IMG/VR virus record: IMGVR_UViG_2609459856_000011
Span: 1 to 21,872 of that record
Length of the DNA: 21,872 nucleotides
Source: a virus
Taxonomy: Duplodnaviria; Heunggongvirae; Uroviricota; Caudoviricetes
Direction: 5' to 3' (one strand)
Positions 6,073-15,132 of the stretch are shown here, one piece after another (the first letter of the stretch is position 1; the number at the start of each line of letters is the position of its first letter). The notes beneath the pieces were generated by a model that ran no database searches, was not told where the DNA came from, and saw nothing but the letters and a program-made list of their open reading frames with translations. The translations under genes were made by a program, and so were the position numbers.

Positions 6073-8898
6073 ATGACGGCAGAGCACATCAGGGACTGGC
6101 AACAACCGCGCCACGCAGTGGGGCGTGAAGGAACGGGGATCCCCGCTCCTGAATCCGCGCTTTCCTCCTGGCTGGATGCCTACCGGGCAGAGAACGAGCG
6201 CCGCAAGGAAATGGCTGATGCGGCGTTCTCCGCCACGCCGCTGGGCAACCTGATTAATAAAAGCCTGGACGCACAGGAAAAACAGGACAAAACCATCACA
6301 CTGGCAGGAGACGCCAGAAAACAGGCACGCGGCGCAGTGGATGAAGCCATGGCCTCGCTGCGCCTGCTGCCGTCCTATCTGCGCGATCCGCTTATTCGCC
6401 ACCTCTCCTTCCTGCGCAAAAAACAGGAAGCCGATCGCCGGAAAGGCAAAAAGAGCTGGCAGGCGGAACGCTATGCACGCGGAACCCTGCGCAAAATATT
6501 CGAACGTCTGGACCGCACCGATCACCGCTGGCTGACACCGGGTTATCGCTCCCTTGCCGGACGCGAACGCCTGGACGATTTGCTTTACCTGCCGCAGCTC
6601 AACAAACACCAGATACAGACGCTGGCCACCATGACGGCGGCGATGTTCAGCAGCACCTTCGAAAAACTCTGCGATGGCTTTGGCGCGACCGATGGCGAGC
6701 TGACCATGGATGTAACGCTGAAGGCGTATCAGATGCTGGCCCGCATGGCGTTACACCTGCACGCCATGCCTCCACATTATGACGCACTGACAACAGACAA
6801 AGACCGGAGGAACGAACCAGACACGGAGCTGCTGCCGGGCGCAATCCTTCGCCTGACCTGTGCGGAATGGTGGAAACGCAAACTGTGGCTGTTACGTTGC
6901 GAGTGGAGAGAAGAACAACTCCGCGCCGCCTGTCTGGTTTCCAGAAAAACATCACCCTATCTGAGCCAGGACGCGTTAAGCGAGTTTCGCGCACAGCGCG
7001 AGAAAACACGCAATTTTCTGAAAAGTTTCATGCTGGAAAACGAAGACGGGTTCACGATTGATCTCGAGACAGTGTATTACGCGGGAGTAAGTAACCCGGT
7101 TCACCGTAGGGCAGAAATGATGGCCACCATGAAGGGACTGGAACTTCTGGCCGAAGCCCGTGGCGACAAAGCGGTGTTTCTGACTGTCACCTGCCCGTCA
7201 AAATACCACGCAACAACGGAGAACGGTCATCCGAACCCCAAATGGAACGGGGCCACCATGCGCGACTCCAGCGATTACCTGGTTAACACGTTTTTTGCGG
7301 CGGTCCGCAAAAAACTGAACCGCGACGGCCTGCGCTGGTATGGCATCCGCACGGTGGAGCCTCACCATGACGGAACCGTGCACTGGCATATGATGGTCTT
7401 TGCCCATCCGGAAGAAATCGACACCATTGTGTCCCACACCCGCGATATTGCCATTCAGGAAGATCGTCACGAGCTGGGCGATGATATTACTCCGCGCTTT
7501 AAGGCGGAGTATGTAGACGGCTCAAAAGGCACGCCAACCAGCTACATCGCCACCTACATCGGAAAGAACCTGGACAGCCGCGCCGTGGATGGCATCGACC
7601 CGAAAACGGGCAAGCCACGCGTTGACCACGAAACAGGAAAATCAATGGCCGAGAGCGTGGAGCGCGCCATCGGCTGGGCGCGCCTTCACCGGGTCCGCCA
7701 GTTCCAGTTCTTTGGCATTCCCTCCCGTCAGGTGTGGCGTGAACTCCGCCGCCTTGCCAGCCAGATGGCACGCAACCCGGAGGGCCCGCAACGGCTGAAG
7801 GATGACGCAATGGATGCGGTTCTTGCTGCCGCTGATGCCGGGTGTTTTGCCACCTACATTGAAAAACAGGGTGGCGTACTTGTTCCGCGCAAGGACTACC
7901 TGATTCGCACAGCCTACGACCTCGCAGATGAGCTGAACGATTACGGCGAACAGAGTGTACAGATTTACGGGATCTGGTCGCCACTCATCGGGGAATCCTC
8001 CCGTGTGTGCACGCACCCGGATAACTGGAAGCTGGTAAGACGTAAACCGGAAGCGGAAGACAGCACCCACGAAAATGGTTTTGACCTTCAGGGCGGCCCT
8101 GCCGCCCCTTGGACTCGTGGCAATAACTGTCCCCGTGTACAGGAAACGGACAACAACGGGACAGAACAGCCGGAAGAACGGCCAGCACCGTGGCCGCAGC
8201 TCCCTGACGGCGTTGAAGTGAACGAATGGATGCGCTCACTGAAACGGCACGAACGCCGAGCGCTGATGCGTTCGCTGCGTGACAAACAGGCAAAAAACAG
8301 CAGTGATGAAACGCAGAACTGGACACAGAGCCGCAAACAGCCACGGCCTTTGCCTGATAACCACGAGTTACTCGCTAAAGAATGGCGGGAGGCTGCCGAA
8401 TCTCTCGGCCTGCATATCGGTGAACAGCAGATGCAGCACCTGTTACGGGGCGGCACTCTGTACGTTGACGGTAGCATCATTGCACCGCAGGGATTTGAAA
8501 TTGTACGCAAACCGGATACCCGCCCGGACAGCCGAATCACGCAGCTCTGGCAGCGCCTGAGCCGTAATCACGGCGTAAGCAGCACGGAGATCCGCCATAA
8601 CCCGGTCGCCAGCTATCTGGAGCAGCTCGGGGCATCAGACCCCGAAGCCGCCGCACGCCTAGCATCCACAATTCAGCAGGACCAGAACACCATGAAAACT
8701 CCCGTTACCGTGCTTTCTGACATGCTGCGCGCCATCCGTGACGCAGAGCACGCACAAAGAATCAATGAAACCACTGAACGCGCCCGCCGCAAGGCTACTT
8801 TGCTCCAAAAGAGAGGCAAACAGCACTTTAGTAATCAAAATGATGATGAGAAAAAACAATTACAAAGTTGGATATGCCTTTTCCATCATGAGGGATGA
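6073..8898 (+). CDS. A: Replication initiation endonuclease, P2 gpA-like (HUH rolling-circle initiator)
   Basis: 941-aa ORF. Contains an HUH motif (TVHWHMMVFAHPEE) and a downstream paired-tyrosine motif (SYIATYIGKNLD), as in P2 A-family nicking proteins. Position after the early ORFs and before the late genes fits P2 synteny. Start codon and the long C-terminal tail are uncertain. Confidence 0.85.
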   Translation: MTAEHIRDWQQPRHAVGREGTGIPAPESALSSWLDAYRAENERRKEMADAAFSATPLGNLINKSLDAQEKQDKTITLAGDARKQARGAVDEAMASLRLLPSYLRDPLIRHLSFLRKKQEADRRKGKKSWQAERYARGTLRKIFERLDRTDHRWLTPGYRSLAGRERLDDLLYLPQLNKHQIQTLATMTAAMFSSTFEKLCDGFGATDGELTMDVTLKAYQMLARMALHLHAMPPHYDALTTDKDRRNEPDTELLPGAILRLTCAEWWKRKLWLLRCEWREEQLRAACLVSRKTSPYLSQDALSEFRAQREKTRNFLKSFMLENEDGFTIDLETVYYAGVSNPVHRRAEMMATMKGLELLAEARGDKAVFLTVTCPSKYHATTENGHPNPKWNGATMRDSSDYLVNTFFAAVRKKLNRDGLRWYGIRTVEPHHDGTVHWHMMVFAHPEEIDTIVSHTRDIAIQEDRHELGDDITPRFKAEYVDGSKGTPTSYIATYIGKNLDSRAVDGIDPKTGKPRVDHETGKSMAESVERAIGWARLHRVRQFQFFGIPSRQVWRELRRLASQMARNPEGPQRLKDDAMDAVLAAADAGCFATYIEKQGGVLVPRKDYLIRTAYDLADELNDYGEQSVQIYGIWSPLIGESSRVCTHPDNWKLVRRKPEAEDSTHENGFDLQGGPAAPWTRGNNCPRVQETDNNGTEQPEERPAPWPQLPDGVEVNEWMRSLKRHERRALMRSLRDKQAKNSSDETQNWTQSRKQPRPLPDNHELLAKEWREAAESLGLHIGEQQMQHLLRGGTLYVDGSIIAPQGFEIVRKPDTRPDSRITQLWQRLSRNHGVSSTEIRHNPVASYLEQLGASDPEAAARLASTIQQDQNTMKTPVTVLSDMLRAIRDAEHAQRINETTERARRKATLLQKRGKQHFSNQNDDEKKQLQSWICLFHHEG

Positions 8899-8920
8899 GA
8901 TGTGAATCGCTAACCGAATA

Positions 8921-8995
8921 TTGTGTTGAATAGAATGCAATTGATATAATTCCCCTTAATTCATTGAAAACTGGATTTTTTGCATAACTATGCAA
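8921..8995 (+). promoter_or_regulatory. Putative promoter and palindromic operator upstream of the methyltransferase-ATPase cargo operon
   Basis: AT-rich intergenic region. TTGTGT (8921..8926), 18-bp spacer, perfect TATAAT (8945..8950). Downstream is an 8-2-8 perfect palindrome TTTGCATA-AC-TATGCAAA (8978..8995), preceded by TTGAAA at 8964..8969. Confidence 0.35.
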
Positions 8996-9083
8996 ATATC
9001 TATGGACGGCGACGATGTTTTTTATCGGGAAAACTCAAGTGCCATGTTAAGATTATGTTTATTTTTTACTGAGAAAATCGTGG

Positions 9084-9929
9084 ATGACAAAGCCTTCTCA
9101 TTTTAGAACCCCTCTTCGTTATCCGGGAGGTAAGGCAAAATTCTTGCCACATATTGAACAAATACTCCGCAACAATGATCTCATTGGTGGAAGTTATGCT
9201 GAACCTTATGCAGGTGGAGCCGGTGTAGCATTAGGTTTGCTCCTTAACGGTCTTGTTGAAAATATCTTCATAAATGATATTGATCCTGCCCTTTATTCTT
9301 TTTGGTTTGCAGTGGTTAATCATAACGATCTGTTATGTGAAATGATTGATGAAGTTCCTGTGACTATTGAAAATTGGCATACTCAAAAGGAGATACTCCT
9401 AAACAATGATAAATATAGTATGCTTGAAGTCGCATTATCTACTTTCTTTTTAAATAGAACAAACCGTTCAGGAATACTTAAGGCTGGCGTTATTGGAGGG
9501 AAAGAACAAAAAGGACCATGGAAGTTAGATGCAAGATTCAACAAAAAAGAGTTAATTAAAAGGATTGAACTAATTGGTGCATATAAGGAGAAAATTTACG
9601 TATCGAATTTTGATGCTGTAGATTTTCTGCTACACCAAAAAGCATTGCTACCCCAAAATAGTCTAATATATCTTGATCCACCTTATTATGTTAAAGGAGC
9701 AGAGTTATATAGAAATTTTTATAAACATGATGATCATGTAAAAATTGCTAATACACTACGGGAAATTCAACTACCTTGGGTTGTGTCTTATGACAATGTG
9801 CCTGAAATAAAAAGCATATATCATGAATTCAACATGACTGATTATACGCTTAATTATACTGCACAAGATAAGAAAAAAGGTCTAGAAATTATCATTTATA
9901 ATCATGGTATAAAAATCCCTGACATTTAA
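9084..9929 (+). CDS. DNA N6-adenine methyltransferase, D12 class (Dam-like)
   Basis: 281-aa ORF. N-terminal GGK motif (LRYPGGKAKFL), AdoMet-binding motif I (AEPYAGGAGVAL, the EPFxGxG type) and catalytic motif IV DPPY (IYLDPPYYV), in the order typical of Dam-family enzymes. Strongly AT-rich relative to the flanking phage genes. Confidence 0.85.
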   Translation: MTKPSHFRTPLRYPGGKAKFLPHIEQILRNNDLIGGSYAEPYAGGAGVALGLLLNGLVENIFINDIDPALYSFWFAVVNHNDLLCEMIDEVPVTIENWHTQKEILLNNDKYSMLEVALSTFFLNRTNRSGILKAGVIGGKEQKGPWKLDARFNKKELIKRIELIGAYKEKIYVSNFDAVDFLLHQKALLPQNSLIYLDPPYYVKGAELYRNFYKHDDHVKIANTLREIQLPWVVSYDNVPEIKSIYHEFNMTDYTLNYTAQDKKKGLEIIIYNHGIKIPDI

Positions 9930-9946
9930 ATTTAAGGATGATATAG

Positions 9947-11644
9947 ATGATTAAAGAAATTAGTTTTAAAAAATTTAAGAAACTGATAGATATTGACTTC
10001 TCATTCAATGAAGATATCAATATAATATCAGGAACCAATGGGACATGTAAGACAACATTGCTTCATTTAATTAGCAATGGTTTCCAAATGCCACCATCTC
10101 GATCACAAAATTATTCAAATAGTAATTGTGTTAGAGTTATAAAATCTATAAACAAAATAGCCAACCCCAAAATGGAAGCAATTGTTAGGGAATCAAAAAA
10201 TTACACCGATCCGGCAGAGGGAACAAAAGGTGTGTTATTTTCTATTAACTATTTGGATCATAGCACACTAGACTTCAGAAAGCACAACTCAAAAAATCCA
10301 GACGAAGCGCAACGGTATGCTATCAAACCAGTATACCCACGCGGAAAAGAAAAACAATCACTTCCAGCTAAACCAGTTTTATATCTTGGATTATCGCGAC
10401 TATTCCCGATTGGTGAAACTAAAGACGACGCCCTTACAAAAATTCCGTTAAACCTACCAGAAGAGTATGTTGGTTATATATCGAAAATATATAATGAACT
10501 TTTGGGCATTAATATTATAAATATAGAATCAAACAATATCGGAGATTTTAAAGCTGGCCCATTATTTGATACCGATAACCCAGCAATTGATTCTAATACC
10601 ATATCATCCGGGGAAGACAATATATTCATTATAATCAAGGCATTAGTTAGCCTTAGGTATTATTTTGAATCACTTATTCAATCCACTGATCAAAAAGAAA
10701 GCATTCTGTTAATAGATGAATTTGATGCCACTTTACATCCTTCTTTACAAATAAGGTTATTAGATAAAATTTATCAATACGCAAAAGATTATAAGATTCA
10801 AGTATTTTTCACAACGCACAGTCTAACATTGCTAGAATATGCTTTTCATAAAAAATACCATGTTGTCTATCTAATTAACAATATTACAAAGGCTCTGCTT
10901 TTGGATAATCCTGATATATTAAAAATAACAATGTATCTGAAAACACAAACAAAGGATGAGATATACACAAGGAACAAGATACCAGTTTTCACGGAAGATG
11001 AAGAAGCTCGCTTTTTATTTAATGAAATACTTGGTTATTGGATAAGCAAATATCCAAATTTTGCTATAGTTAGTAATTCATTTCACTTAATTGATTGTTT
11101 CATTGGTGCAGACAATTTAAAAACTATTTTTAATGATTCTCATCTTAAGGAAACCTCGTTAAAATCAATTTGTATTCTTGATGGAGATCACAGCCCTGAG
11201 GATCAGAGAGGAATTATATCACTGCCGGGTGAAAAAGCTCCAGAACAATTGATATTTGAGCATTGTGAGCACCTTTATAATACCGACGACTCTTCCTTCT
11301 GGGAAAATCAGGATATAATTAACAATGGTTTTTCGAAAGAGTTATACTTACTCAAGATACGTCCTCAATTACAATCAATTGAAACTGAAATTCAGAAAAG
11401 AAAAGACAACCATGAGTCTACATCCGGTTTAAGAAGAAAATTAAATAAGAAAATATTCAATCAGCATATTGAATTCTTTAGAATGATTACAAGAAACTGG
11501 TTAGACAAACCAGAAAATCAGAAATCTCTCCAGTATTTTTACAATGGATTACGATCCTTATTCTACCGGGTTACACCAACAAACGGCATTGACAGAAAAA
11601 TTTGGGATTTTGACTATAACAAAATCATTAAAGAGGATAAATAA
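9947..11644 (+). CDS. OLD-family-like ABC-type ATPase with a putative C-terminal TOPRIM nuclease domain
   Basis: 565-aa ORF 17 nt downstream of the methyltransferase. Walker A (SGTNGTCKTTLL), ABC-signature-like SSGEDN, Walker B plus D-loop (ILLIDEFDATLHPS), H-loop (FFTTHS). C-terminal half has an acidic strand motif (IPVFTEDEEARF) and a DxD motif (ICILDGDHSPED), which fit a TOPRIM fold. Same AT-rich composition as the methyltransferase. Confidence 0.7.
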   Translation: MIKEISFKKFKKLIDIDFSFNEDINIISGTNGTCKTTLLHLISNGFQMPPSRSQNYSNSNCVRVIKSINKIANPKMEAIVRESKNYTDPAEGTKGVLFSINYLDHSTLDFRKHNSKNPDEAQRYAIKPVYPRGKEKQSLPAKPVLYLGLSRLFPIGETKDDALTKIPLNLPEEYVGYISKIYNELLGINIINIESNNIGDFKAGPLFDTDNPAIDSNTISSGEDNIFIIIKALVSLRYYFESLIQSTDQKESILLIDEFDATLHPSLQIRLLDKIYQYAKDYKIQVFFTTHSLTLLEYAFHKKYHVVYLINNITKALLLDNPDILKITMYLKTQTKDEIYTRNKIPVFTEDEEARFLFNEILGYWISKYPNFAIVSNSFHLIDCFIGADNLKTIFNDSHLKETSLKSICILDGDHSPEDQRGIISLPGEKAPEQLIFEHCEHLYNTDDSSFWENQDIINNGFSKELYLLKIRPQLQSIETEIQKRKDNHESTSGLRRKLNKKIFNQHIEFFRMITRNWLDKPENQKSLQYFYNGLRSLFYRVTPTNGIDRKIWDFDYNKIIKEDK

Positions 11645-11720
11645 TGTATTCTAATAGAATATAAACATCAAAGCTATATTTTTTACACATATCAAGAGTA
11701 AAAAATAATTTAACTTTTAC

Positions 11721-11760
11721 ATAACGACCTCTTTTACAAATAAGTAGAAAAGGTCGTTAT
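11721..11760. terminator. Putative stem-loop or terminator downstream of the cargo operon
   Basis: Inverted repeat ataacgacctctttt / aaaaggtcgttat with a 12-nt loop, about 80 nt after the ATPase stop. No clean T-tract follows the stem, so terminator function is uncertain. Confidence 0.3.
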
Positions 11761-11883
11761 AACTCTCATCTCCATTGCATGTAATTTTCTTTGCATATTT
11801 TCACATAACAGTCAGGAATGTATTTATAAGCAACGTCGTATACATAGGCTCAATTTTTCTATAAATAAGCACTCCGTTCGGTT

Positions 11884-11910
11884 TGCACAATAGTGCACAA
11901 ATTTGCACAA
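11884..11910. repeat. Three perfect TGCACAA heptamers at exact 10-bp spacing, followed by a T7 run
   Basis: gttTGCACAAtagTGCACAAattTGCACAAttttttt; copies start at 11884, 11894 and 11904. Lies in the intergenic region between the cargo operon and the portal gene, where the cos site is expected. Confidence 0.6.
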
Positions 11911-12276
11911 TTTTTTTGAACGACTTTTTGCCCTTCCGGCCCGCATGGCGGCTGGATCCGTCAAGGATCCGTGCGTGCACAAAAAAACGCGTTTTTTCTG
12001 CGCGCAGGTGACGGGGGAACAGCCCGCGTTTCAGGGGGTAAATAGCATCCCCTGAATGATGTCGCAGCGACACAACAGAATGGCTGTCTTTCTCACGCTG
12101 AGCGTGAAGAATACGTGAGTGATTCTGATTTGATGGAGTGAAAGGTAAGGCCGTCAAAATCGCACTGAGGCGGCGAGAACATGCAGTCAGCGCAGTGGGA
12201 TTGCGTAAGAGTCTGACCGTCGATGATGGCAATAAGCAGGAAAGCGTCGTGAAATTATCTGACTGATACAGGAGCT

Positions 12277-12301
12277 GGAGAGTCGGGGCATAAATTTTTT
12301 A
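12277..12301. other. Perfect hairpin next to the portal gene 3' end, in the putative cos region
   Basis: GGGGCATAAA-ttt-TTTATGCCCC (10-bp arms), 34 nt from the portal stop, followed by a GC-rich segment ggcgaagcagcagacaagcgaagcgcgtcagg. Confidence 0.5.
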
Positions 12302-12334
12302 TGCCCCGGCGAAGCAGCAGACAAGCGAAGCGCG

Positions 12335-13381
12335 TCAGGATGTGGGCTGGGTATCTAACAGTGCGTAAGGGTTAAAGCGGATCACCTCTTCGCCAAGCCA
12401 GTCATTGATGTGCTTCATGGCCTCCATGACGGGCATCAGCTCGTTAATTGCGTAAACCCGCGCGGCCTTCTCCACATCACCAAACGCACTTTTTTCGCCC
12501 GGCATCGCCCCCATCAGTTGCGGCGGAACGCGGTGCGCAGCCAGCACATCATCACGGGATGCCGCCTTAACATTCATGAACTCATCTTTTGCGGTGATCT
12601 GCTGGAACGGCAAAATTTGCACCCCCTCTTTGCCCCCGTTGGGCGCATGAATGAGCACGTTTTTAAACGCACCACCACCACGTGCCCCCTGTAGCGTTTC
12701 TTTCAGGGAGTCCATGCTTTCGCGGTTTACCTGCGCTGCACCGATGTAGATGATGCACCCGGCGTGGGATCCGTTGTCATAGTACAGTTTTCTGAACATG
12801 TCCGCCGAATGAGAAAGGCTGGCCGAGAGTAATGCGCCAAGATATTCCGGCATGCCGTAGATTTCCTGGTTAATATCCGGATTCATCAGGTGGCACACTT
12901 TGCCAGGACGAAACTGGAACTCGTCCTTGCCATCCTGCACATACCACCATGATTCAAGATCGCTTCCGCGTCGCATGTATTTCGCCAGGGCGTGCCGTAA
13001 TTTAAGCGGTTCGCCGAGCATATTGCTTCGAAGCTCAAGGAATGCGTTACCGAACACAAACCAGTCCAGCGCCAGCGCCGAGAAATCCTGCCGGGAAAGC
13101 AGCGGGTGCGGGATGTAGCAACCGAGTAATACATTGCGCTTAAAGTAAAGCGCAGACTGATGCCAGGACGTTTGCCGGGCAGCTCTTGCCAGACCGTACC
13201 AGTCCACCGGGGTTTCATACCACCGCCCGTTATCAGCACAGTACATATTATCCAGCAGGTCATGCCAGGTCAGGCGATAAGGACCATCAAATGTGAATGC
13301 ACTGAGCGATGATTCTTTCCTGAGCGCATCAGCGAGATCAATGCGTGAACTCATGCGCACTTTTTTATTTTTTCTGCTCAT
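12335..13381 (-). CDS. Q: Portal (capsid portal) protein, P2 gpQ-like
   Basis: 348-aa ORF, leftward, sharing an ATGA overlap with the large terminase gene. Size and Q-P leftward / O-N-M-L rightward arrangement match P2. An alternative start exists at the tenth codon. Confidence 0.85.
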   Translation of the reverse strand: MSRKNKKVRMSSRIDLADALRKESSLSAFTFDGPYRLTWHDLLDNMYCADNGRWYETPVDWYGLARAARQTSWHQSALYFKRNVLLGCYIPHPLLSRQDFSALALDWFVFGNAFLELRSNMLGEPLKLRHALAKYMRRGSDLESWWYVQDGKDEFQFRPGKVCHLMNPDINQEIYGMPEYLGALLSASLSHSADMFRKLYYDNGSHAGCIIYIGAAQVNRESMDSLKETLQGARGGGAFKNVLIHAPNGGKEGVQILPFQQITAKDEFMNVKAASRDDVLAAHRVPPQLMGAMPGEKSAFGDVEKAARVYAINELMPVMEAMKHINDWLGEEVIRFNPYALLDTQPTS

Positions 13382-15132
13382 CAGAACTCCATAACCGTGA
13401 AACGCTCGTTTTCTCCTTCGCCGCCAATCGGTTCGTTAATGACAGCAAGCATGGTTGCCCACGCAAGGTCGCCGTGGCTGATCCCCCTCGCTCGGTCCGT
13501 TTCGTAAGTGATAAAGCCGCCCGGTGTTTTCACCTTACGCACGGCGTTAAAGGCCGCGACCAGCTCGCGTTCGGCGCGATCGTATTCCCACCGCCCGGCA
13601 CGCATTATTTGCAGCATTTTCAGTACCAGCGACCGTTTTGATGACAGCGTGAAGGTGTACGGAATAGCAGCAGGGAAAAACCGCTTCACTATCTGATAAA
13701 CAGCCTCCCCGTTCCCGCCCGTCACATCAATGCCGATGTGTTCCACGTTGTAGCGATACGTGAACTCTTCAATGACTCTGGCCTGTTCTTCAAACTCCAG
13801 CCCCTGAACGCGTCGCGTCTCCACCGTTCGAAAACGGCCACCAGGAACAGCCGGAGGAACCACCACGGACACAGCGCCGCTGTCGCCGTTGCCACTACTG
13901 CCGTTTGCGTCATACCCAATCCATACCGGACGATTCCCCATCGGGCGGGGAGCAAAAGGTTTCCAGTCTTTCCAGTCGTCGTATCCGTCAACACCGCAGC
14001 CAATCAGGATATTCAGGTTAAATGCCGATTCCCCTTCGCGGACAAACTCACACATATAGAGATTGAGGAACTCGTCTTCGGTGTTTTCATCACGAATTTC
14101 GTCGATATCGGTGTGTTTCCAGCCGTGATTAACCACATCTTCCAGCGTGACAATTTGCCGCCACGTCCGGTCAGGGCAGATAAGCCCGTTATGCAGCGTT
14201 TTCCAGTCCACAGAAAAACGCTGGCGTTTATGCGAGGCCTTTTTCTCGTTCCAGCGGTCGCCGTTCCAGTAGGCGTATGCCTCGTGCGTTTCGGTGGATG
14301 GCGTGGAGAAGTAGGTGCGCCGCAGTCCGCTGAGGGTTGCCATAGCGCCAGCCACCTTGCGCAGTTCAGCAAAGCGACTGACCCAGAAAAATTCATCAAA
14401 ATAAAAATTGCCCGTATAGGACTGTGCCGACGCAGCAGAAGTGCCGAGAAAATGCAGCTCTGCGCCGTTTGAGAGGATGATTTTATCGCCCCCTTTCAGC
14501 TCCACATCAACTTCAGCCGCGGCCTTCTGAATAATGCTTTTAAACTGGAACGCCTGACGACGCGACGCAGACAAAAAAATCTGGTTACGCTGGTAAGGTT
14601 GTGCCACATCGTCACGCAGCGCCATCAGCAGTGCTTCCTGTGCAAAATACCAGGTCGCCCCAATCTGTCGGGATTTCAGGATCATCCTGTTACGTATCCC
14701 GGCTTCCCTGCAAAGGGTCAGGGAGTCAAACCAGCCCCGCTGATGCCACTCCAGCCTGCTGATGATTTTTTCCCGCAGTGCGGCAATCTGTTCCGGCGTG
14801 AAATGATTTTTGAGTTTTTTCACCCGGCCTTTCTTTCCTGCGGCCATTACATCCGGCTGGCCATCATGCAGCTTTTTAAGCTGCCGGGTCAGCAGGTCTA
14901 TTTCCTTAAAGTCACCGCCTGTTTTATTCTGTTTTTCAGTAAGCTGGATGAGGCGCGCATCGATGGACTGCGTGACACGCTGCACGGGTGGCGTTTCATC
15001 CCACTGGTCGCGTTTTTTCCACGCATAAATCGTGTTCGGGTTTATTCCCATCAGACGTGATATTTCTGCGGGCGGATAACCCTGCCAGTAAAGTTGCCGC
15101 GCACGCTGGCGCACAAAAGCGTCCTGAATCAT
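13381..15132 (-). CDS. P: Terminase large (ATPase) subunit, P2 gpP-like
   Basis: 583-aa ORF divergent from the scaffold gene. N-terminal HTH-like segment (GYPPAEISRLMGINPNTIYAWKKR), then ATPase region (ILKSRQIGATWYFAQEALLMAL). Length close to P2 P (about 590 aa). Confidence 0.9.
   Translation of the reverse strand: MIQDAFVRQRARQLYWQGYPPAEISRLMGINPNTIYAWKKRDQWDETPPVQRVTQSIDARLIQLTEKQNKTGGDFKEIDLLTRQLKKLHDGQPDVMAAGKKGRVKKLKNHFTPEQIAALREKIISRLEWHQRGWFDSLTLCREAGIRNRMILKSRQIGATWYFAQEALLMALRDDVAQPYQRNQIFLSASRRQAFQFKSIIQKAAAEVDVELKGGDKIILSNGAELHFLGTSAASAQSYTGNFYFDEFFWVSRFAELRKVAGAMATLSGLRRTYFSTPSTETHEAYAYWNGDRWNEKKASHKRQRFSVDWKTLHNGLICPDRTWRQIVTLEDVVNHGWKHTDIDEIRDENTEDEFLNLYMCEFVREGESAFNLNILIGCGVDGYDDWKDWKPFAPRPMGNRPVWIGYDANGSSGNGDSGAVSVVVPPAVPGGRFRTVETRRVQGLEFEEQARVIEEFTYRYNVEHIGIDVTGGNGEAVYQIVKRFFPAAIPYTFTLSSKRSLVLKMLQIMRAGRWEYDRAERELVAAFNAVRKVKTPGGFITYETDRARGISHGDLAWATMLAVINEPIGGEGENERFTVMEF

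Follow-up and report, generated by a model that had tools for sequence, protein, structure and literature searches.

Repeats that serve terminase recognition beside a cos or pac cleavage site are well known as a general kind of packaging signal, and in other phages the subunit that reads such a site is usually the small one, TerS. Phage lambda uses IHF together with gpNu1 at its cosB (R3-I1-R2-R1). In SPP1, short boxes in helical phase at pacL and pacR are bound by G1P, and an oligomer of terminase connects the two regions around the place of cleavage. For P2 and P4, Ziermann and Calendar reportedly described in 1990 a '55-bp core' of cos with 19-nt cohesive ends. The accessible literature on P2/P4 cos takes this 55-bp core as the conserved sequence, a distal triple of repeats forming no part of it. 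P2 also harbours an anti-phage defence hotspot, which has been described as 'adjacent to cos' (Rousset et al. 2022), and P2/P4 cosmids that carry longer cos flanks give a transduction that is about 2000-fold better, 0.035 against 1.7e-5 (PMC9594776).

We analysed a 21,872-nt stretch of viral DNA, which as a whole is called the window here, and which carries three phased TGCACAA heptamers between a cargo operon and a portal gene. Our main reading, based on comparative sequence analysis, is that this array is probably (about 0.7) the distal terminase-recognition module of a cos packaging site, whichever subunit reads it.

The repeat array and the putative cos core

Pfam matches identify the window as a P2-like prophage, in which gpA (6073-8898) is followed by cargo, the array and core, Q and P on the minus strand, and then O, N, M and L on the plus strand. 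The annotations of P2 and 186 show the same order, P and Q being read in the direction of cos. The features referred to below are as follows; the counts of perfect copies of R1-R3 were made in 72 unique cos regions of the window's class, chosen without using the pattern.

11721..11760, + strand: terminator hairpin of the cargo operon, outside cos (17-nt arms; -18.7 kcal/mol, z = -7.1; cargo-specific flank)
11884..11890, + strand: R1, TGCACAA, first base of the conserved backbone, at which the cargo hotspot has its border (perfect in 43/72)
11894..11900, + strand: R2, TGCACAA, distal repeat (perfect in 54/72)
11904..11910, + strand: R3, TGCACAA, distal repeat, 103 bp before the cos core (perfect in 58/72)
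11911..11917, + strand: T7 tract after R3 (TTTTTTT in 54/72 unique sequences of the class)
11925..11942, + strand: moderately conserved box TTTTTGCCCTTCCGGCCC in the spacer (GCCC...GCCC invariant in two phage genera and two satellite-like elements)
11976..11987, + strand: R4 with its A-tract (TGCACAAAAAAA), proximal repeat, 31 bp before the cos core (GCA invariant, C 0.97; n=72)
12007..12025, + strand: putative 19-nt cohesive-end core GGTGACGGGGGAACAGCCC (13/19 identity to annotated P2 cosL/cosR)
12026..12043, + strand: conserved right flank of the core, GCGTTTCAGGGGGTAAAT (common to P88 and the satellite-like element L205, which diverges beyond it)
12335..13381, - strand: portal gene Q (PF04860; 45-47% identity to the P2 and 186 portals; 3' end faces cos, as in P2)
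13381-15132, - strand: large terminase gene P (Pfam)
14944..15117, - strand: N-terminal HTH of gpP, residues 6-63, a candidate for reading the repeats (PF06056 Terminase_5, 1.8e-26; overlapping HTH_23/HTH_28)
17245..18045, + strand: small terminase gpM, alternative reader or assembly partner (PF05944, 1.9e-36)

Three plus-strand TGCACAA copies at a start-to-start distance of exactly 10 bp, with a T-tract directly abutting the last of them, had been reported in a sequence-only reading of this DNA, and both the pattern and its coordinates were confirmed. A fourth copy, R4 (11976-11982), which runs into an A-tract, was absent from that reading. TGCACAA alone is not enriched in the window, where 9 matches were found against 4.8 expected and 6/100 shuffles reach 9. 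R1-R3 are the one case in the window of a 7-mer repeated three times with an 8-12 bp period, and any such triple appeared in 1/300 first-order Markov simulations with local composition. Since the heptamer by itself shows no significant enrichment, it is the phased triple, and not the heptamer count, that is the unusual feature. The non-coding region of about 690 bp in which the array had been placed is likewise correct (11645-12334); it is composite, though, consisting of an AT-rich cargo flank from 11645 to about 11880 and, from 11881/11884 rightwards, of conserved backbone. Small ORFs over the array (11883-12011, 11903-12055, 11801-12232 minus strand) span the break between cargo and backbone, showed no evidence of being genes and were judged mechanical. 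The covariance models of Rfam 15 gave no match in 11600-12400 up to E = 1. Between the core and the portal gene lies a 42-aa ORF (12138-12266, + strand), for which P88 and P884B11 have a hypothetical protein annotated; after it comes a hairpin with perfect 11-bp arms (12284-12308, z = -5.4) that occupies the position of the P2 terminator tQ.

R1-R3 lie 103-123 bp upstream of GGTGACGGGGGAACAGCCC, and R4 lies at -31. This 19-nt sequence is G-rich, near-invariant within the window's class and identical at 13/19 positions to the annotated P2 cosL/cosR sequence GGCGAGGCGGGGAAAGCAC, and from this identity we infer the nick positions of a putative cohesive-end core. P2, 186 and P4, the cos ends of which are annotated, carry TGCAT at -124/-111/-101 and at -29. 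Their third TGCAT stands exactly 101 bp before cos in all three, the corresponding window values being 103 bp and, for the proximal site, 31 bp; TGCACAAAAAAA at -31 in the window corresponds to TGCATTAAAA at -29 in these phages, and the TGCAT at -29 is inside the P2/P4 55-bp core. An equivalent array is found in P2, 186 and P4 at the same distance from annotated cohesive ends, in agreement with the cos-proximal placement that had been proposed from the window's letters. Outside cos, P2 and P4 show no relationship, and from -97 to -35 their sequences are unalignable, with 0-4 matches per 10 bp; the repeats are nonetheless in register.

In the window, as in P2, 186 and P4, the site is located between the hotspot on the gpA side and the end (3') of the portal gene, and the cores are G-rich and related; about 30 bp upstream of the core there is a proximal repeat, and the three distal ones are found about 100-125 bp upstream. 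The window differs from them in its word (TGCACAA, theirs being TGCAT), in the spacing of the distal repeats (10/10 against 12-13/10), in having a T7 tract, in the sequence of the core and in the distance from core to portal stop codon, which is 309 bp as against 167 bp in this comparison. Gene position, a related G-rich 19-nt core and a conserved left flank with a proximal repeat, by which a P2-family cos site can be recognised, were all found in the window, and related cores were present in about 50/85 portal loci. Enterobacter phage phiT5282H, a member of a different genus, matches the window at 11884-12028 only and diverges in both flanks, and it keeps the array, the T-tract, the fourth repeat and GGTGACGGGGGAACAGCCC. 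In the public record LR595891 the linear sequence is opened at 11929, to the right of the array and to the left of the proximal site, and it has no terminal redundancy; its start is probably an arbitrary cut. The annotated starts of the P2 old-tin transcript are found 27-29 bp to the left of the first TGCAT (L005 2425-2475; P2 33424-33474), so that the -35 region of its promoter overlaps the distal array of cos.

The border of the cargo hotspot and the satellites

The cargo in the gpA-cos hotspot of the window (9084-11644) comprises a D12 N6-adenine methyltransferase (9084-9929), which matches PADLOC PD-Lambda-5_B (4.7e-122), and a 565-aa AAA_15/AAA_21 ATPase (9947-11644), the PtuA/GajA/AriA-like matches of which are weak. 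GC content is 0.21-0.44 over the cargo and reaches 0.5-0.6 directly to the right of the array. At the other end, it drops from about 0.6 to about 0.35 within roughly the final 50 codons of gpA (941 aa; window 8750-8898), and the GPA domain of this protein spans residues 179-503 only, which suggests that the variable region may begin inside the 3' end of gpA.

When the 690-bp intergenic region was compared by BLAST with P88, 520873, 500465-2, PhiR44_2 and others, all of which carry different cargos, the match began only at query position 237-240, that is, at 11881-11884 of the window. Among RefSeq complete genomes of E. coli, the 158-bp block 11878-12035 is present in 1,106/5,426 (1,254 places), always at a coverage of at least 80%, and in a 60-row sample across the whole ranking the alignments start at query 4-7 (11881-11884), a single row with the same cargo excepted. 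The whole 690 bp, cargo-side flank included, was found in only 14/1,143 E. coli genomes with this cos block. Since alignments across different cargos start at R1, the array belongs to the backbone and not to the cargo; as judged from these alignments, it is the first conserved sequence of the backbone, and more than 1,000 independent cargo contexts show no intrusion into it. The sequence-only reading had named two outcomes that would speak against it, namely that the array is part of the inserted cargo island or is absent from closely related functional phages. The array proved to lie outside the island, homology across different cargos beginning at 11881-11884, and it is kept in P88, phiT5282H and others. 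The end of the hotspot would in this way be explained to the base, the first repeat being its border. In P4, the hotspot (gop, beta, cII) occupies the opposite side of cos and the array is found left of cos beside psu. As the P4 hotspot sits across cos from the array, the array is tied to cos and not to the hotspot.

Retention of the array by elements that lack a portal gene was observed for both words. Out of 74 TGCAT-type loci, 41 have a portal gene and 28 have psu and no portal; this combination marks the 28 as P4-like satellites, and since 24/28 have at least 1.5 kb of downstream DNA, the absence of the portal is real. For the TGCACAA type, two uncharacterised satellite-like elements, L205 and L209, were found in IMG/VR contigs; the TGCACAA architecture is present in both, and genes for a portal and for a large terminase are missing. 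In L205 (1-4500), the array and a P88-type cos are followed by genes for a coiled-coil protein of 236 aa, for a protein of 470 aa in which residues 179-466 match the P2 major-capsid domain and, judged from translations, for a MazE/MazF-like pair; no portal gene lies within 4.2 kb. In L209 (about 930-13613), an integrase and a ProQ-like gene are followed by the array, the proximal repeat and a divergent G-rich core, after which come genes for a gpO truncated to its protease domain (187 aa), for gpN, for a gpM-like protein and for a Toprim primase. When the window was aligned with P88, phiT5282H, L205 and L209, the five sequences had only the array, the GCCC...GCCC box, the proximal repeat and the core in common. 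In sequence terms, what is retained by elements that borrow the packaging machinery of a helper is exactly the module of array, proximal repeat and core. E. coli RefSeq genomes show no excess of P88-type satellites, with 1,254 places for the 158-bp block against 1,309 for the 690-bp query, and the 78% outlier among the 158-bp matches (H118) is a portal-adjacent prophage and not a satellite.

Repeat words, conservation and candidate readers

From 80 portal loci in one-genome-per-species bacterial genomes, we obtained 45 non-redundant cos regions with a recognisable core. These P2-like loci of beta- and gamma-proteobacteria have repeats at about -125/-115/-105 and at about -30. When anchored on the core, starts of [TC]GCA[CT] number 22/29/28 in the -125/-115/-105 bins and 9/14/29 in the -40/-35/-30 bins, with 7 in the entire spacer. 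The word itself changes with lineage, being TGCACAA in P88-like phages and Novemvirus, xCACAA in Xenorhabdus and Morganella, TGCAT in P2/186-like phages, GCGTCA in Collimonas and CCCGTCA in Acidovorax. The 5-mers of the proximal site are found again 6.6 times per locus in the distal region as against 0.7 times in the spacer, and the pairing of proximal and distal sites from the same locus (6.6) exceeds that across loci (3.0), a result matched by 0/5000 permutations. The repeat word is lineage-specific, and the distal and proximal sites change together.

The distance is as constrained as the word. The core stands 101-104 bp (corrected) after the third repeat in 106/119 IMG/VR loci with a TGCACAA triple, and 100-101 bp after it in 74 loci with a TGCAT triple, a class from which the T-tract is absent. 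Per-base conservation in the 72 unique sequences of the window's class is 0.0-0.3 left of R1 (one position 0.6), 0.7-0.9 in the heptamers and 0.5-0.7 between them, with a fall past the T-tract and a renewed rise at the proximal repeat and the core. The heptamer positions are also scored at 0.89-0.98, with GCAC at 0.93-0.98. Conserved heptamers, more variable linkers and a sharp drop to the left make up a conservation pattern consistent with a protein-binding array, as had been suggested from the phasing. What is expected of terminase recognition sites, namely several copies of one word that stand at a constrained distance and are conserved against variable flanks, was observed at this locus.

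Within the array, conservation falls from R3 through R2 to R1 (58, 54 and 43 perfect of 72). Loci L264-L289 of IMG/VR, which have the core GGTGACGGGGGGCAAGCCC, keep the proximal TGCACGAAAAA, and several members (L267, L272, L278, L282) have distal copies that are degenerate or have in part given way to other sequence. Taken together, this gradient and these degenerate copies suggest that the array may enhance packaging rather than being required for it.

Two terminase subunits are candidates for reading the repeats. The HTH at the N-terminus of gpP, which the 186 record likewise annotates, includes a motif that is N-T-x-Y-x-W in 15/15 CACAA-class loci and x-T-x-(H/Q)-S-W in 15/18 GCAT-class loci, the remainder being near variants; the window has N-T-I-Y-A-W. 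The two motif classes separate even where the first 12 bases of the core are identical, and the association of HTH and word is confounded by phylogeny. An AlphaFold model of gpM (31 homologues; pLDDT 82.6) shows an all-alpha repeat, the structural matches of which are TPR-like and weak, and a basic, disordered tail (residues 230-266). It contains no HTH, winged helix or recognisable DNA-binding domain and is unlike solved TerS structures, and a search by sequence returned no solved structure for either gpM or gpP. The IMG/VR set assembled with gpM belongs wholly to the TGCACAA/GGTGAC superclass, so covariation within it does not discriminate between gpM and gpP.

Packaging model and alternative readings

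A phased word, a second site at a fixed distance, covariation between the two and retention by satellites together point to a multi-site signal for one DNA-binding protein specified by the phage. In the model that we propose, the cos unit would extend from 11884 to about 12043 and comprise the phased triple with its T-tract, a spacer, R4 with its A-tract at -31 and the core at 12007-12025. The word would be bound by several terminase protomers, in the distal triple as well as in the proximal repeat, and the fixed distance of about 101-104 bp would allow the intervening DNA to loop or wrap, so that the nuclease is assembled and positioned on the core. Any DNA packaged by that terminase, whether phage or satellite, would need the same word. 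If the array is needed, turnover of cargo in the defence hotspot would halt exactly at its first base. A role of the array in termination, similar to that of cosQ, may also be considered.

As to the reader, the N-terminal HTH of the large terminase gpP is a more likely candidate than gpM, since its motif tracks the repeat word and the gpM model lacks a DNA-binding fold; we hold this identification of gpP tentatively, at slightly less than even odds. The sequence-only reading had pointed to the small terminase and to IHF as proteins that might bind the array. A gpM oligomer that reads the phased sites, as gpNu1 does at lambda cosB or G1P at SPP1 pacL, would leave the packaging role unchanged. 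gpM is the TerS of this family (PF05944), its tail is basic and disordered, and in L209, which has no large terminase, a gpM-like gene lies 1.9 kb from the element's own array, an arrangement that by analogy with SaPI TerS favours gpM as the reader. However, the confident model, all-alpha with weak TPR-like matches and no resemblance to solved TerS, does not support this role, and the gpM-like protein of L209 is equidistant from the gpM of the two classes (29% to the TGCACAA and 31% to the TGCAT class) despite its TGCACAA array, which makes gpM an unlikely reader, though one to be taken seriously. A host architectural protein might instead bend cos DNA at the repeats, leaving only the core to be read by the terminase. 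Such a protein would account for the GCA(T/C) core common to many lineages in different hosts and for the A- and T-tracts that flank the repeat sites, and lambda cosB offers a precedent in IHF. The words TGCAT (P2/186/P4) and TGCACAA (P88-like) nevertheless coexist in phages of one host species, E. coli, Collimonas and Acidovorax prophages use GCGTCA and CCCGTCA, and the word tracks a motif in a phage protein, gpP. The coexistence of two words within E. coli phages and the link to the gpP motif make a host protein improbable. The suggestion of IHF in particular found no support, as inspection by eye gave no good consensus with correct spacing; in 11911-11975 only ATCAA/TTCAA-N5-TTG was seen, on the minus strand and one base off the WATCAANNNNTTR spacing.

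Readings that detach the array from packaging fare worse. The array could serve the hotspot, as a promoter or operator of the cargo or as a recombination landmark for cassette exchange, and the coincidence of the hotspot border with R1 and the overlap of the array with the -35 region of the P2 old-tin promoter speak for this. Set against them are the transcription of the window's cargo towards the array, ending at its own terminator, the position of the array left of cos in P4 even though the hotspot is across cos, and a distance that is fixed to the core and not to any cargo gene, so that we consider a hotspot function very improbable. A consensus scan flags GTGCACAAATTTGCAC followed by T7, as if the array and T-tract formed an intrinsic terminator insulating cos from read-through. 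The stem is 5 bp (z = -1.67) and 14/200 shuffles fold equally well; moreover, a strong terminator is carried by each cargo, at 11721-11760 in the window (z = -7.1) and just before the array in P88, and the TGCAT class has no T-tract. As the fold is no better than that of shuffled sequence, this reading was rejected, and we give it next to no credence. Iterons, which the sequence-only reading had also mentioned, are short phased direct repeats in an AT-rich setting, as here, and TGCACAA arrays in unrelated viral contigs look iteron-like (L106, L111, L163). The idea did not hold up, since the module is common to elements with different replication genes, both gpA phages and primase-encoding satellites, and always accompanies the cos core at a fixed distance; the P2 origin, moreover, lies inside gene A. 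A replication origin at the array is thus extremely improbable. Resemblances to NtrC, sigma-54, Ogr/B-activator and Cox-box sequences were dismissed for unsuitable spacing or symmetry.

With terminase recognition as the preferred reading, the locus resembles lambda cosB in having multiple copies of a word beside the nick site at a constrained distance, bendable DNA and sites presumed to load the terminase on the nick site. It differs from cosB in that the P2-family sites are all on one side, the future right end of the mature DNA, in that the reader may be the HTH of the large subunit instead of TerS, and in that an IHF consensus was not found by eye. SPP1 is similar in its helically phased short boxes and its two separate binding regions. 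It differs in using a headful pac with boxes that flank the cut on both sides, whereas here the site is cos and both regions are on one side. As in SaPI/PICI and P4 mimicry, where satellites carry the packaging signal of the helper, P4-like elements and L205 keep the array, the proximal site and the core; the shared signal is here a multi-part cos of about 160 bp and not, as for SaPI/PICI, a pac site inside terS.

Extended to the whole P2 family, the proposal would be that the HTH of gpP, and not the small subunit, sets packaging specificity through a four- to five-site array, in which three phased distal sites and one or two proximal ones nucleate a terminase oligomer on looped DNA. We regard this extension as possible, with the odds rather against it. 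If it is true, the repeat word would be a packaging 'dialect' on which the choice of helpers open to a satellite depends, and it would fix the border of the hotspot.

The distal array of the P2 family is undescribed in the accessible literature, two large hotspot studies included, and older papers may cover it. The same literature likewise contains no description of the lineage-specific words, their covariation with the proximal site and the gpP HTH, or the role of the array at the hotspot border. Deletion end-points of relevance may be given by Ziermann and Calendar (1990) and by Dodd and Egan (1996). If our main reading is correct, the functional cos of the P2 family would be a multi-part signal of about 160 bp in place of the 55 bp given in textbooks. 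This would offer a testable explanation for the gain seen with longer-flank cosmids and would be relevant to engineered P2/P4 delivery particles. Words that change together with the HTH motif of the terminase suggest a simple code for helper-satellite compatibility, and they make it cheap to search sequences for cos sites and new satellites, which is how L205 and L209 were found.

TGCACAA arrays of at least 3 copies were also observed in unrelated viral contigs (L106, L111, L139/L160, L148, L163, L207) that have no cos-like core nearby. Some of these have many copies in both orientations (L163) and look like iterons or operators of other systems. A cos block essentially identical to that of the window, beside a portal gene 99% identical to the window's, was observed in a 226-kb record with a Firmicute label (L022; NZ_JBQPOM010000071.1, 'Vagococcus sp. 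WN89Y'), which is probably enterobacterial contamination or a mislabelled record.
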